64,000 bases of DNA, taken from Solirubrobacterales bacterium (GTDB taxonomy: Bacteria; Actinomycetota; Thermoleophilia; Solirubrobacterales; 70-9). The notes beneath the pieces are model-generated. The model saw only the letters and a list, made by a program, of their open reading frames with translations, was not told the origin of the DNA and searched no databases. The first letter of the stretch is position 1. Each line of letters begins with the position of its first letter. The position numbers and the translations under genes are program-made. Positions 22,438 to 61,698 of this stretch are shown here, one piece after another. The stretch covers positions 1,867 to 65,866 of the forward strand of contig VRUE01000003.1 in the NCBI GenBank assembly GCA_019456285.1, in the 5' to 3' direction.

Positions 22438-22543
22438 CGGCCTGGCTGATCTTCTCGTCGGGCATGGGCGCACAAGGTTAAACGCCGCTGCGCGCCTGGA
22501 CTGAACGAAACGTCCCCTGATAGGCTTCCCCCAACATAAGCGC

Positions 22544-22658
22544 CACATCTAGAGGGGTGGAGGGACTGGCCCAGCGAAGCCCCGGCAACCACTCCGGACC
22601 ATTGGTTCGGAGAGAGGTGCCAAGTCCAGCAGGTCATCTGAAAGACCTGGGAGATGTG
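22544..22658 (+). promoter_or_regulatory. SAM-I (S-box) riboswitch aptamer
   Basis: CACATCTAGAGGGGTGGAGGGACTGGCCCAGCGAAGCCCCGGCAACC...GGTGCCAAGTCCAGCAGG...CCTGGGAGATGTG matches the S-box core blocks (AGAG.GG.GGAGGGACTGGCCC..GAA.CCCGGCAACC, GGTGC.AA.TCCAGCAG). P1 is CACATCT/AGATGTG. Confidence 0.9.
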
Positions 22659-22675
22659 GGGAAAGTCCGATCGGA

Positions 22676-22706
22676 CCTCTGCCCCACACGAGGCGGAGGT
22701 TTTTTT
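22676..22706 (+). terminator. riboswitch expression-platform intrinsic terminator
   Basis: CCTCTGCC-8 nt-GGCGGAGG followed by T7. An alternative antiterminator TGTGGGG (22655-22661) pairs with CCCCACA (22682-22688) and shares bases with the 3' half of P1. Confidence 0.8.
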
Positions 22707-22736
22707 GTTGGCGGCGTCGACAAGAAGGAAGATCGG

Positions 22737-23969
22737 ATGTCAATCGAGAGTCTGAGGTGCAAGGAGTGCGGGACGGCCTGCGAGCTGGATGCGCGCTACG
22801 TCTGCGAGAGCTGCTTCGGCCCGCTGGAGGTGGCCTACGACCACTCCTCGCTCGACCCGGCCGAGGCGAAGCGCCGCATCCAGGCCGGCTCGCAGGGGAT
22901 CTGGCGCTATGCCGACTTCCTCCCCTTCGAGGGGCGGCCCGGCGACCCGCTGGAGCCGGGCCTGACCCCGCTGCTGCGCGCCGACCGCCTCGCCGAGCGG
23001 CTCGGGATCGATGCCGAGCTCTGGGTCAAGAACGACGCCGCCAACCCGACCCACTCCTTCAAGGATAGGGTCGTCGCGGTCGCCGTCGCGAAGGCCCGGG
23101 AGCTGGGCTTCGAGACGGTCGCCTGCGCCTCCACCGGCAACCTCGCCAACGCGCTCGCCGCCCACGCCGCCGCCGCCGGCCTCGGGTCCTACGTCTTCGT
23201 CCCCGCCAATCTGGAGGAGCAGAAGCTGCTCGCCACCGGGGTCTACGGCACCAACCTGGTCGGCGTCCGCGGCAACTACGACGACGTCAACCGCCTCTGC
23301 ACCCAGCTCGCCGAAACCCGGCCCTGGGCCTTCGTCAACGTCAACCTGCGCCCCTACTACGCCGAGGGCTCGAAGACGCTCGCCTACGAGACGGTCGAGC
23401 AGCTCGGCTGGGAGCTGCCGGATCGCGTCGTCTGCCCGATCGCCTCCGGGTCGCTGTTCACCAAGGTGGGCCACGGCTTCCAGGAGTGGCTCGACCTGGG
23501 GCTGGTCGACGGCGAGCAGCCGGTCTTCAACGGCGCCCAGGCGCAGGGGTGCAGCCCGGTCGCCACCGCCTTCGCCGCGGGCTGGGAGATCTGCAAGCCG
23601 CAGCGGCCCGAGACGATCGCCAAGAGCCTGGCGATCGGCGACCCGGCCGACGGGCCCTACGCGCTGGAGCACGCCCGCCGCACCGGCGGCACGATCGACG
23701 CGGTCAGCGACGAGGAGATCCGCGACGGCATCCGCCTGCTGGCCGAGACGACCGGGATCTTCACCGAGACCGCGGGTGGGGTCACGATCGGGGTGCTGGC
23801 CAAGCTCGCCGAGCGTGGCGAGATCGCCGCCGGAGAGCGCCTCGTCGTCTACATCACCGGCGAGGGGCTGAAGACGCTCGACGCGACTCGCGATAGGTTC
23901 CGGATGCACGAGATCGACCCCGATCTCGACAGCTTCGAGTCCGAGTTCCGCCAGGCGGTAACCGCCTGA
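22737..23969 (+). CDS. threonine-synthase-family PLP enzyme with N-terminal 4-Cys zinc ribbon (possible O-phosphohomoserine-dependent homocysteine synthase)
   Basis: CKECG...CESCFGPLEV ribbon, then a ThrC-type fold (NPTHSFKDR lysine motif, ASTGN, GS...). It sits directly behind the SAM riboswitch. Confidence 0.9.
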   Translation: MSIESLRCKECGTACELDARYVCESCFGPLEVAYDHSSLDPAEAKRRIQAGSQGIWRYADFLPFEGRPGDPLEPGLTPLLRADRLAERLGIDAELWVKNDAANPTHSFKDRVVAVAVAKARELGFETVACASTGNLANALAAHAAAAGLGSYVFVPANLEEQKLLATGVYGTNLVGVRGNYDDVNRLCTQLAETRPWAFVNVNLRPYYAEGSKTLAYETVEQLGWELPDRVVCPIASGSLFTKVGHGFQEWLDLGLVDGEQPVFNGAQAQGCSPVATAFAAGWEICKPQRPETIAKSLAIGDPADGPYALEHARRTGGTIDAVSDEEIRDGIRLLAETTGIFTETAGGVTIGVLAKLAERGEIAAGERLVVYITGEGLKTLDATRDRFRMHEIDPDLDSFESEFRQAVTA

Positions 23970-24241
23970 TGCCGATCACCGTGAAGATCCCGACCCAGCT
24001 GCGCGCCGCGACCGGGGGCGAGGCCGAGATCGAGGCCTCCGGCTCGACCGTCGGCGAGGTGCTCGACGCGGTCTTCGACGCGCACGGCGACCTGCGCGAG
24101 CGGATCACCCAGAACGGCGACCTGCGCCGCTTCGTCAACGTCTACGTCTGCGGTGAGGACATCCGCTTCCGGGAGGGCCTGCAGACGCAGATCGACGAGG
24201 GCGACGAGGTGACGATCCTTCCCGCCGTCGCCGGCGGCTGA
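23969..24241 (+). CDS. MoaD/ThiS-family sulfur-carrier protein ending in Gly-Gly
   Basis: 90 aa. VKIPTQLR...GEVLDAL......L...I..........FVNVYV...DIR...GL.T.I.EGDEVTILPAVAGG stop. 1 nt overlap (TGATG) with the upstream gene. Confidence 0.85.
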   Translation: MPITVKIPTQLRAATGGEAEIEASGSTVGEVLDAVFDAHGDLRERITQNGDLRRFVNVYVCGEDIRFREGLQTQIDEGDEVTILPAVAGG

Positions 24242-58125: not shown

Positions 58126-61100
58126 TCAGCTTCCGAGTGCCTCGGCCGGAGCCCCTTCGGGCTCTTCCTCGGCCGGCTCGGACTCCGGCGGCAGCTCGCC
58201 GCCGCGCTTGGTGCCGGCGATCAGCTCGTCGGACGCCCTGCCCTTCGGGATGAAGCCGGACTTCATCCCGAAGTAGACGGCCTGGGGGTGGTGGGCGACG
58301 ATCGCCACCGTCGACTGCTCGGGCATCACGGCGTGGCCCCCGGAGAGGGTCATCCCGATCTCCTCCAGGCCCAGCAGCCGCCAGACCTTTTCGTGCTCGG
58401 ACTGGTCGGGGCAGGCGGGGTAGCCCCATGAGTAGCGGCGGCCCTGGTCGCGCTCGATGCCGAGGTCGCGCCGTGCCTCGGAGTGCAGCCACTCGGCCAG
58501 GCCCTCGGCCGACTGCACGCCGACGCCGTGGACGTAAAGCTGCTCGGCGAACTCGCCTTCGCGCTCCAGCCGCGCGGTCAGCTCGGTCACCTCGGGGCCG
58601 GCCGTGACTCCCTGCAGCGCCACCACGTCGCGCTGGCCCGACTCCAGCGGGCGGAAGAAGTCGGCGAGGCAGATCCGGTCGTGCTTGGGCTGGCGCGGGA
58701 AGACGAGGCGCTCCAGCTCGCGCTCGGGCTCGGAGGGGTCGAAGACGACCAGCTCGTTGCCGTCGGTGGCGCAGGGGAAGTAGCCGAGCCGCGCCCGCGG
58801 GCGCAGGTAGTCCTGCTCGCGCCACATCCGCTCCAGCCGCGGCGCGAAGCCCTCCTCCTCGCCGTCGCCCTCGACCAGCGCCCGCCACGCCTCGCCCTTG
58901 ACGCCGCGCCCGCCCCAGTGCAGCTTGAAGAGGACGTGGCGGTCGAGGTAGGGGAAGACCCCGTCGAGGTCGATCTCCACCTCGCGCACGCCCCAGAAGG
59001 GCGGCGTGGGGACCGGCGTGTCGGTGCGCGCCGAGGAGCGGACGCTGTCGTCGCTGGTCGGCGGCGCGTCGTCGACCGCGACCGGCTTCTCGCGGAGCTG
59101 CTTCGCCTCGCCGCGGATCCGCTCGACCAGCGCCTCGTGGGCCTCCGCGTCGATCAGCGCGTCCATCGTGTCGAGCCCCTGGAAGGCGTCCTTGCAGTAG
59201 AAGACGCCCGGCTCGTAGACCTCGTCCGAATCTTTGCCGAGCGGGTAGAGGGTGCGGCGGCCGAAGTCGCGGTTGATCGCGGCGCCGCCGATCAGCACCG
59301 GGAAGCCGAGGTCGCGTTGGTGCAGCTCCTGCACGCAGATCGGCATCTGCTTCGAGGTCGAGACGAGCAGGGCGGAGAGGCCGATCGCGTCGGCGCCGTT
59401 CTCCACGGCCGCGTCGATGATCGTGTCGACGGGCACCTGCTTGCCGAGGTCGATCACCGTGTAGCCGTTGTTGGTGAGGATCGTGTTGACCAGCGACTTG
59501 CCGATGTCGTGCACGTCGCCGAACACGGTCGCGATCACCACCTTGCCCTTGGTGTGGCCCTCGATCTGCTCCAGGTAGTTCTCCAGCCGCGCCACGGCAC
59601 GTTTCATCACTTCGGCCGACTGCAGGACGAACGGCAGGATCAGCTCGCCGGCGCCGAACTTGTCGCCGACCTCCTTCATCGCCGGCAGCAGCACCTCGTT
59701 CAGAGTCGGCACGGCGCCGATCTTCTCGTTCGAGCGGTCGATCCAGTCCTCGACGCCGTCCTTGCGGCGGCGCAGGATGTGCCAGTGCAGGGCCTCCTCC
59801 GGCTCCATCCCCTCGGTCGGGTCGGCGCCCTCCTCCTCGGCCTCCTCGCCCTTCGCCTCGAAGTGGGCGATGAAGCGCTCCAGCGCGTCCTCACGCCGGT
59901 TGAAGACGAGGTCGTCGGTCAGCTCTCGCTCTTCGTCGGAGATCTCCGCGTAGGGGGTGATGTGGTTGGGGTTGACCATCGCCAGGTCGAGGCCGGCCTC
60001 GACGCAGTGGTGCAGGAAGACCGAGTTGAGGACGGCGCGCGGGCGCGGCGAGACGCCGAAGGAGACGTTGGAGACGCCGAGCGAGGTCTTCACGCCTGGG
60101 ATCTCGGCCTTGATCCGGCGGATCCCCTCGATCGTCTCGACCGCTGCGGGCTTCCACTCCGCCTCGCCGGTGGTCAGGGTGAATGTGAGCGCGTCGAAGA
60201 TCAGCGCCTCGGGGTCGAGGCCGTGCTCGGTGCAGGCGAGGTCGCGGATGCGCTTCGCGATCTCGACCTTGCGCTCCGCTGTCTTCGCCATCCCGACCTC
60301 GTCGATGGTCAGCGCGATCAGCGCCGCGCCGTGCGCCTTCGCGAGCGGCACGACGACGTCGGCCTTCTCGCGGCCCGCCTCGAGGTTGATCGAGTTGACG
60401 ATCGCCCGCCCGGGGATCTGCTCCAGCGCCGCCCGGATCACCTCCGGCTCGGTCGAGTCGACCTGGATCGGGGTGGGCTGGGTCAGTGAGATCCCCTTCA
60501 CGACCGCGGCCATCTGCTCGTCCTCGTCCTGACGCTCGGTCAGCGCCACGCAGACGTCGAGCACGTGGGCGCCGCCGGTCACCTGGTCTTCGGCGATCTG
60601 GACGAGGCCGTCGTAGTCGTCGGCGAGCAGCAGCTCCTTCGCCTTGCGCGACCCCTGCGAGTTGACCCGCTCGCCGACCAGGGTCGGGCGCGGCTCCTGG
60701 ACGAGCGGGGTGGAGGTCATCATCGACGAGACCCGGGCCGGCCCGGGCGCCGGGCGTTCGCCGGGCAGGCGGCCCTCGACCCGCTCGCGGATCGCGGCGA
60801 TGTGCTCGGGAGTCGTCCCGCAGCAGCCGCCGACGATGCCGACCCCGTAGCGCTCGACGAACTCGCCCAGGGTCGCGGCGAGCGGCTCGGGCTCCGCGGG
60901 GAAGATCGTCTCGCCGTCGGGCCCCTGCAGGGGCAGTCCCGCGTTGGGGATGCAGTGGACGGGCAGCGGGCTGTTCTCGCCCAGGTAGCGGATCGCGTCG
61001 CGCATGTCCTCGGGCCCGGTCGAGCAGTTGAGCCCGATCACGTCGATGTCGAGCGCGGTGAGCGTGGTCAGCACAGCCTGGATGTCGGTGCCGAGCAGCA

Positions 61101-61698
61101 TCTTGCCGCCCTGCGGCAGCAGCGAGACGCTGGCCTGGATCGGCAGCGCCCGGCCGCTCGCCTCGAACGCCTGCCGAGCGCCGGAGATCGCCGCCTTCAC
61201 CTCGAGGATGTCCTGCGCGGTCTCGACGATGATCAGGTCGGCGCCGCCCTCGACGAGGCCGCTGGCCTGCTCGGCGAAGACCTCGACCAGCTTGGCGAAG
61301 GAGATATCGCCCAGGGTCGGGTCGGTGGAGGCCGGCAGGAAGCCGGTCGGCCCGATCGAGCCGGCGACGAAGCGCTCCTCGCCCGCCGCCTTTCGGGCTA
61401 TCCGCGCCGCCTCGGCATTGATCTCGGGCGTGTGCTCGCCGAGCCCCCACTCTTCGAGCTTCAGCCGCGACCCCTGGAAGGTGTCGGTCTCGACCACCTC
61501 GGCGCCGGCATCCAGCATCGAGGTGTGTACGCCCTCGATCACGTCGGGGCGGTTGAGCACCAGCGCCTCGTGGCACTTGCCCTGCAGGCCGCCGTAGTCG
61601 GCCTCGGTCAGGTCGAACTGCTCCAGGGTCGCGCCCATGCCGCCGTCGAAGACGACGATGCGCTCCTTGATCGCCGCTATGTAGTCGCGCTCAGCCAT
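58126..61698 (-). CDS. metH: cobalamin-dependent methionine synthase
   Basis: Hcy-binding (FDGGMG..L; GGCCGTTP), pterin-binding, B12 cap/binding (DVHDIGK; the DxHxxG motif), and AdoMet activation domains are all recognisable. ATG 61698 is preferred over TTG 61704. Confidence 0.96.
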   Translation of the reverse strand: MAERDYIAAIKERIVVFDGGMGATLEQFDLTEADYGGLQGKCHEALVLNRPDVIEGVHTSMLDAGAEVVETDTFQGSRLKLEEWGLGEHTPEINAEAARIARKAAGEERFVAGSIGPTGFLPASTDPTLGDISFAKLVEVFAEQASGLVEGGADLIIVETAQDILEVKAAISGARQAFEASGRALPIQASVSLLPQGGKMLLGTDIQAVLTTLTALDIDVIGLNCSTGPEDMRDAIRYLGENSPLPVHCIPNAGLPLQGPDGETIFPAEPEPLAATLGEFVERYGVGIVGGCCGTTPEHIAAIRERVEGRLPGERPAPGPARVSSMMTSTPLVQEPRPTLVGERVNSQGSRKAKELLLADDYDGLVQIAEDQVTGGAHVLDVCVALTERQDEDEQMAAVVKGISLTQPTPIQVDSTEPEVIRAALEQIPGRAIVNSINLEAGREKADVVVPLAKAHGAALIALTIDEVGMAKTAERKVEIAKRIRDLACTEHGLDPEALIFDALTFTLTTGEAEWKPAAVETIEGIRRIKAEIPGVKTSLGVSNVSFGVSPRPRAVLNSVFLHHCVEAGLDLAMVNPNHITPYAEISDEERELTDDLVFNRREDALERFIAHFEAKGEEAEEEGADPTEGMEPEEALHWHILRRRKDGVEDWIDRSNEKIGAVPTLNEVLLPAMKEVGDKFGAGELILPFVLQSAEVMKRAVARLENYLEQIEGHTKGKVVIATVFGDVHDIGKSLVNTILTNNGYTVIDLGKQVPVDTIIDAAVENGADAIGLSALLVSTSKQMPICVQELHQRDLGFPVLIGGAAINRDFGRRTLYPLGKDSDEVYEPGVFYCKDAFQGLDTMDALIDAEAHEALVERIRGEAKQLREKPVAVDDAPPTSDDSVRSSARTDTPVPTPPFWGVREVEIDLDGVFPYLDRHVLFKLHWGGRGVKGEAWRALVEGDGEEEGFAPRLERMWREQDYLRPRARLGYFPCATDGNELVVFDPSEPERELERLVFPRQPKHDRICLADFFRPLESGQRDVVALQGVTAGPEVTELTARLEREGEFAEQLYVHGVGVQSAEGLAEWLHSEARRDLGIERDQGRRYSWGYPACPDQSEHEKVWRLLGLEEIGMTLSGGHAVMPEQSTVAIVAHHPQAVYFGMKSGFIPKGRASDELIAGTKRGGELPPESEPAEEEPEGAPAEALGS

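Follow-up and report, generated by a model that had tools for sequence, protein, structure and literature searches.

We analyzed a window of 64,000 nucleotides (the whole stretch examined here, positions 1,867 to 65,866 of contig VRUE01000003.1 in assembly GCA_019456285.1) from a Solirubrobacterales bacterium, in which two overlapping genes, here termed metM and metO, lie behind a riboswitch for S-adenosylmethionine (SAM). The sequence evidence points to an operon of two genes, metM and metO, whose SAM-I riboswitch would act by terminating transcription and whose products would make homocysteine by the MetM/MetO route, and we place the probability of this reading at about 0.85. A first-pass annotation, made from the letters of the window, had proposed that the locus serves homocysteine rather than threonine synthesis, a proposal now supported by orthology with a Streptomyces system, by the clade in which the enzyme falls and by a separate hom-thrC-thrB operon in the same genome. 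The source is a metagenome-assembled genome (MAG) of 2.1 Mb in 147 contigs, with 69% G+C and 92.5% completeness, of an uncultured soil actinobacterium, a small-genome member of the Solirubrobacterales (Thermoleophilia); it is labeled G000 below, C44, C53, C93, C105 and C112 are contigs within it, and L-numbers denote loci fetched for comparison.

The primary description of MetM and MetO is reportedly that of Hasebe, Adachi, Maruyama and Hamano in 2024 (Appl Environ Microbiol 90:e01247-24). As summarized from Hasebe et al. 2024 in Appendix 4 of the 2026 GapMind paper (10.1101/2024.10.14.618325), MetM of Streptomyces albulus converts O-phosphohomoserine to homocysteine using the thiocarboxylate of MetO, in a pathway whose sulfur ligase is MoeZ and which also includes the hydrolase Mec. 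In the literature citing this work, MetM is described as "often misannotated" as threonine synthase. PMC12172450 reports that metM of S. albulus is preceded by a SAM riboswitch, and that cyanobacterial homologues, without the riboswitch, are ~52% identical to it. GapMind and PMC12172450 confirm the Streptomyces MetM/MetO system to which the first-pass annotation had referred.

The leader of the operon contains a SAM-I (S-box) aptamer at 22542-22660 on the plus strand, which matches Rfam RF00162 over model positions 1-108 (85.4 bits, E 8.9e-19, with the gathering score at 44.4). The match is full-length and above the gathering score, and therefore assigns the element to the SAM-I class. The Rfam scan of the window returned this aptamer, one tRNA and nothing else, and the copy in the metM-metO leader is the sole SAM-I element in the entire 2.1-Mb assembly. 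The leader has a folding z-score of -5.0 relative to shuffled controls. A terminator scan combined with minimum free energy folds located an intrinsic terminator on the same strand, starting 13 nt 3' of P1 of the aptamer, with an 11-bp stem and an 8-nt loop at 22673-22702 and a U7 run at 22700-22706; the aptamer and terminator ahead of the genes are thus as first described. The same hairpin and U-run were found in the close relatives L017, L021, L045 and L043, and in the verrucomicrobial locus L092.

Sequence reading and constrained folds also provided a candidate antiterminator (22655-22688, plus strand), in which the 3' strand of P1, UGUGGGG (22655-22661), is complementary to CCCCACA (22682-22688), a segment that overlaps the 5' arm and loop of the terminator. 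An alternative 10-bp pairing, predicted for the nascent transcript, joins the 5' strand of P2 (22554-22563) to 22676-22685. Either pairing could keep the terminator from forming in the absence of SAM. The calculated energies were -77.4 kcal/mol for the conformer with aptamer and terminator, which is the minimum, versus -71.7 kcal/mol for the forced antiterminator. From these features, we infer an expression platform of the transcription-termination type, with the antiterminator as a candidate.

The first gene of the operon, metM (22737-23969, plus strand), encodes a 410-residue enzyme of the ThrC family dependent on pyridoxal 5'-phosphate (PLP), an assignment based on Pfam PALP, TIGR00260, the phylogenetic tree and signature alignment columns. 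Its ATG at 22737 lies behind a Shine-Dalgarno-like AAGAAGGAAG at 22722-22731, and its TGA stop is at 23967-23969. An N-terminal four-cysteine zinc-ribbon, C8-x2-C11...C23-x2-C26, precedes the catalytic domain, in which the PLP lysine K109 sits within an SFKDR motif. The enzyme, a fold-type-II PLP protein, scored 240 bits with Pfam PALP, 280 bits with the TIGR00260 thrC model (cut-off 167) and only 40 bits with TIGR01136, and its best-scoring solved relatives are threonine synthases at 160-197 bits. The AlphaFold model (predicted local distance difference test score 87) shows a ThrC fold behind a confidently predicted small beta-hairpin element bearing the cysteines, and its best structural matches in the PDB, which holds no MetM structure, are again threonine synthases. 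A ThrC-family PLP enzyme with a CxxC...CxxC N-terminus, as originally noted, is therefore what the gene encodes.

The second gene, metO (23969-24241, plus strand), encodes a 90-residue carrier of the ThiS/MoaD family, CysO-like, which scored 58.9 bits with Pfam ThiS and ends in ...PAVAGG. Its ATG at 23969 overlaps the metM stop codon (ATGA). Both the AGG-ended MoaD/ThiS-like product and the translational coupling of the two genes had been claimed from the sequence, and both hold. The closest solved chains to MetO are the ThiS/MoaD-family chains 4n6e_B and 3dwg_C (79 bits), the latter of which we take to be M. tuberculosis CysO. The operon is flanked upstream by a corA-HIT-phosphomannomutase unit on the opposite strand and downstream by a sugar nucleotidyltransferase gene; these neighbors are unrelated, and the operon therefore comprises two genes. 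No NIL-domain protein is encoded within or beside it.

The pairing of enzyme and carrier is widely conserved. Among the 80 best-matching genome loci, which extended to cyanobacteria, Nitrospirota and Verrucomicrobiota, a carrier ending in ...AGG, or in GG plus 1-2 residues, directly follows the enzyme in ~74, and the ~6 carrier-less exceptions are mostly at contig ends. Apparent MetM-MetO fusion reading frames in L042 and L058 were rejected as frame changes near the 3' end of metM in MAG assemblies, because the TGATG junction is intact in both. Some MetO homologues carry residues beyond the Gly-Gly (AGGR, GGAR or GGSR in L021, L026, L027, L043 and L086), and some Streptomyces MetO proteins end in GGC (P0425, P0489). 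In homologues with such extra residues, the tail would have to be removed before a thiocarboxylate could form, plausibly by a JAMM hydrolase, whereas the window MetO needs no C-terminal trimming, since it already ends exactly in Gly-Gly.

Orthologues of the enzyme are common in the phylum. A search of 401 sampled Actinomycetota genomes at E <= 1e-60 gave strong matches in 183 (a tally that takes in four unpublished genomes, G001, G048, G120 and G336), and ~174 of these are far above the level of paralogues. In one genus with 7-10-Mb genomes, all 10 sampled genomes carry an orthologue with 54-57% identity. The Streptomyces sequences were obtained from this phylum-wide search followed by exact cluster look-up of the hits: five loci fetched from the genus belong to named Streptomyces species, including S. 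achromogenes and S. aureus, and a sixth locus is from Micromonospora rifamycinica. In each of these six, an RF00162 match lies directly ahead of the enzyme gene and a 91-residue MoaD/ThiS gene follows it. Over 404 residues, the window MetM shares 56% identity with its S. achromogenes orthologue; the identity of the window MetO to Streptomyces MetO is 49%. In public records, the two Streptomyces and Micromonospora genes are called "threonine synthase" and "MoaD/ThiS family protein", and near-identical proteins from Solirubrobacterales MAGs, like other close relatives, are also labeled "threonine synthase". The warning in the first-pass annotation that a plain thrC label would probably be wrong is borne out.

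In a maximum-likelihood tree of 70 sequences with Shimodaira-Hasegawa-like approximate likelihood ratio test (SH-aLRT) supports, the window protein groups with the Streptomyces and Micromonospora orthologues (SH-aLRT 95), in a clade that also includes acidimicrobial, cyanobacterial, Nitrospirota and verrucomicrobial homologues, and the canonical ThrCs from those genomes form a separate clade (SH-aLRT 99). The phylogeny that had been suggested as a check on the assignment therefore groups the enzyme with MetM-type proteins and not with canonical ThrC. The phmmer scores against the window protein are bimodal: clade members reach 430-840 bits, canonical ThrCs 169-185 bits. About 35 alignment columns split the clade from ThrC, including GNAG to ASGS at 236-239, N205R, R208Y, Q212S, R299A and W306G, and the window protein departs from the clade consensus at just one clade-conserved column. 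Both groups keep the STGN loop and the catalytic lysine motif SFKDR; the four cysteines are invariant across the clade, and the N-terminal region that bears them is absent in canonical ThrC. Although the TIGR00260 score (280 versus 167) would suggest membership of the canonical ThrC orthologous group, the protein is placed outside it by its position in the tree, its signature columns and its genomic context, in which canonical ThrC is encoded separately.

The SAM-I element has a more restricted distribution than the gene pair. It was found upstream in the Solirubrobacterales, Miltoncostaeaceae and Acidimicrobiales loci and in one verrucomicrobial locus; none was found at the examined cyanobacterial, Nitrospiraceae and Manganitrophaceae loci, nor at the Acidimicrobiaceae locus L084. 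Since the element was not found in the cyanobacterial and Nitrospirota homologues examined, the riboswitch is not universal to the system.

The remaining genes of G000 provide a context that fits homocysteine synthesis from O-phosphohomoserine. A hom-thrC-thrB operon on C105 scored 437 bits for hom, 300 bits for thrC and 214 bits for thrB (cut-off 168), and its ThrC scored 380-399 bits against solved ThrCs, versus 160-197 bits for the window protein. With this operon, both threonine synthesis and the supply of O-phosphohomoserine are covered, and the window gene is not the sole thrC homologue of the genome, which answers the search for a second, canonical thrC that the first-pass annotation had recommended; the refuting case that it had named, in which this gene would be the only thrC and complement a threonine auxotroph, does not arise. 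The B12-dependent methionine synthase gene metH is in the window itself, at 58267-61668 on the minus strand (C93:60133-63534 in contig coordinates), 34 kb from metM-metO and outside the operon; its TIGR02082 score of 1006.5 bits is just below the cut-off of 1010.85. No riboswitch was found before metH in the Rfam scan of the window, and no metE was found in G000.

The searches of the genome for metX, metY and metB, also recommended at the outset, returned none: no PF01053 enzyme (the MetB/MetC/MetY/MetZ family), MetX, metA, HTS or HcyBio was found in G000, at its completeness of 92.5%. In addition, neither MetX nor HTS was present in 12 further members of the family. MetM/MetO is probably the only source of homocysteine in this genome.

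The window encodes no ThiF-type enzyme; the two in the genome are on C44 and C53, in agreement with the original observation that no E1-like enzyme is encoded near the operon. The search for a MoeB/ThiF adenylyltransferase led to the rhodanese-domain type on C44. Consecutive genes at C44:17385-21070 (loci L013 and L011) specify a rhodanese-MoeB fusion, a CysO-like carrier with an AGG end, a cysteine synthase resembling CysM, a SAM-dependent methyltransferase and a JAMM hydrolase, and look like a thiocarboxylate cysteine pathway of the M. tuberculosis type. The E1 of this cluster, whose rhodanese domain is N-terminal, scored 528 bits with PRK08762 (cut-off 449) and 377 bits with the MoeZ model (cut-off 647). 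The hydrolase scored 85 bits as a Prok-JAB protein (cut-off 25) and 98 bits with the desampylase-like model, below its cut-off of 130. The genome context suggests that the C44 rhodanese-MoeB fusion probably adenylates and sulfurates MetO, and C44 is likely also the source of any JAMM hydrolase that would act on it. Judging from gene neighborhoods, the other two ThiS-family genes appear to belong to the molybdopterin and thiamine clusters.

These elements can be assembled into a working model. With abundant SAM, the P1 helix would close, the hairpin at 22673-22702 with its U7 run would form, and transcription would stop short of the genes; with little SAM, a segment of the aptamer would instead pair with the 5' arm of the terminator, and the operon would be read through. 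By homology, ThrB would supply O-phosphohomoserine, whose phosphate MetM would replace by means of PLP, with the C-terminal Gly-Gly thiocarboxylate of MetO as the incoming sulfur and homocysteine as the product. MetO would be activated by adenylation and sulfuration on the C44 rhodanese-MoeB fusion, and MetH would then methylate homocysteine to methionine.

Three other accounts of the locus were weighed. The enzyme might form homocysteine from O-phosphohomoserine and take its sulfur straight from sulfide or a small donor, leaving MetO dispensable or otherwise used; PLP enzymes of beta- or gamma-replacement often accept sulfide in vitro, the E1 is unlinked to the operon, and the few carrier-less loci, most of them at contig ends, would fit as well. 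We regard this as improbable, given that the carrier is translationally coupled to the enzyme in the window, that it recurs over five phyla always with a GG or GG plus 1-2 residue end, and that the published pathway, in the summary cited above, gives the MetO thiocarboxylate as the donor. A cysteine-forming or other thiol amino acid synthase, for example one acting on O-phosphoserine as CysM does with CysO, is considerably less probable still. The solved relatives nearest to the carrier include 3dwg_C, presumably CysO, and SAM riboswitches sometimes govern genes on the way from cysteine to methionine; the enzyme itself, however, is of the ThrC family and not CysK/CysM-like, as its TIGR01136 score indicates, and a separate CysO-like/CysM-like pair is encoded on C44, which together make such an activity unlikely. 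The orthologous Streptomyces system is, moreover, assigned to homocysteine in the passages cited above.

The enzyme might also be a true second threonine synthase, brought under SAM control so that the two branches drawing on O-phosphohomoserine, to threonine and to methionine, stay in balance. This would account for the TIGR00260 score above its cut-off, for the threonine synthases that lead the structural matches, and for the weak threonine synthase activity that PMC12172450 gives for a cyanobacterial homologue. This reading, too, has very little to recommend it: a canonical thrC is already present in the hom-thrC-thrB operon, the protein lies outside the canonical clade and differs from it at many conserved columns, including the change of GNAG to ASGS, and threonine synthesis has no use for a coupled thiocarboxylate carrier. 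SAM-dependent repression would also have the wrong sign for a threonine enzyme that competes with methionine synthesis.

Several observations weigh against the MetM/MetO reading of the operon, or against parts of it. In the leader, the fold of lowest energy is the one with the terminator, and the candidate antiterminator is a short one. The window MetO is slightly closer to the CysO-like paralogue of its own genome (55% identity) than to Streptomyces MetO (49%), and the carrier alone is therefore not assignable by sequence. A PF01053 enzyme is present in all five other sampled genomes of the family, and one of these relatives, G344, has a metY-metX-metW operon (locus L120; G344:C78, 7333-10367), which serves direct sulfhydrylation via O-acetylhomoserine, besides metM-metO; the family is therefore mixed in the number of homocysteine routes that it keeps. 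The absence of a second route from G000 is likely real and at the same time indistinguishable from an assembly gap; the genes that flank the metY island of the relatives have no orthologues in G000 either. Other Streptomyces species, S. achromogenes among them, stand in for S. albulus MetM in the sequence comparison, and the properties of the MetM/MetO family are taken second-hand from two papers that cite Hasebe 2024. Finally, a cyanobacterial homologue, from Microcystis, is reported in PMC12172450 to have threonine synthase/deaminase activity and not to be fully MetM-like in vivo.

The operon most resembles the MetM/MetO system of S. albulus, which it matches in a ThrC-like enzyme followed by a GG-ended ThiS/MoaD carrier of ~90 residues with SAM-I upstream. 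As in the Streptomyces system, a separate canonical thrC accompanies thrB; a rhodanese-domain E1 and a JAMM hydrolase, the presumed partners of MetO, are encoded elsewhere in the genome. The platform differs: it is an intrinsic terminator in the window, but in Streptomyces, Micromonospora and Acidimicrobiia 9-18 nt separate the end of the aptamer from the start codon, a spacing that implies translational control. The E1 differs in domain order, with the rhodanese domain N-terminal here (PRK08762 type). The terminator platform and the E1 domain order are the sole departures from the published system that we found.

The CysO/CysM/Mec/MoeZ pathway of M. tuberculosis is similar in that its sulfur donor is the thiocarboxylate of a protein from the same carrier family and its PLP enzyme, of fold type II, works on an O-phospho amino acid. 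In contrast to CysM, the window enzyme is of the ThrC family, with O-phosphohomoserine as its predicted substrate and homocysteine as its predicted product, and it is under SAM-riboswitch control. Canonical ThrC (2zsj, 6cgq, 2d1f, 1uim) shares with it the fold, the STGN loop, the PLP lysine motif SFKDR and, by prediction, O-phosphohomoserine as substrate, but not the four-cysteine ribbon, the residues at the ~35 changed columns, the coupled carrier or the SAM control, and forms its own clade.

A third ThrC-family gene was observed in the genome at C112:1510-2910 on the minus strand (locus L003:1390-2790), with 303 bits to the window protein. Its product has the same four-cysteine ribbon and belongs to a sister clade; it carries many of the signature residues that are not those of ThrC and differs at others. 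The gene has neither a carrier nor a riboswitch, its neighbors, encoding an alpha/beta hydrolase and a patatin-like protein resembling the lipases of cyclic-oligonucleotide-based antiphage signaling systems (CBASS), are unrelated, and it was not found in five other sampled genomes of the family.

The pathway itself is already known, having been published in 2024 and included in GapMind in 2026, and the window operon is an ordinary, mislabeled member of it, to which the locus adds a version with a terminator-type riboswitch. The main value of the finding is for annotation: the NCBI thrC model passes the enzyme and public records call it "threonine synthase", so automated reconstructions would report a gap in methionine synthesis together with a spurious second thrC, an error that would affect Thermoleophilia and many other soil actinobacteria. 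More tentatively, and at somewhat less than even odds in our estimate, MetM/MetO may be the only homocysteine route in this lineage, with one rhodanese-MoeB E1 and one JAMM hydrolase serving both it and the CysO/CysM cysteine route of C44. If both routes do run through the C44 E1, both sulfur amino acids of this organism would be built through protein thiocarboxylates.

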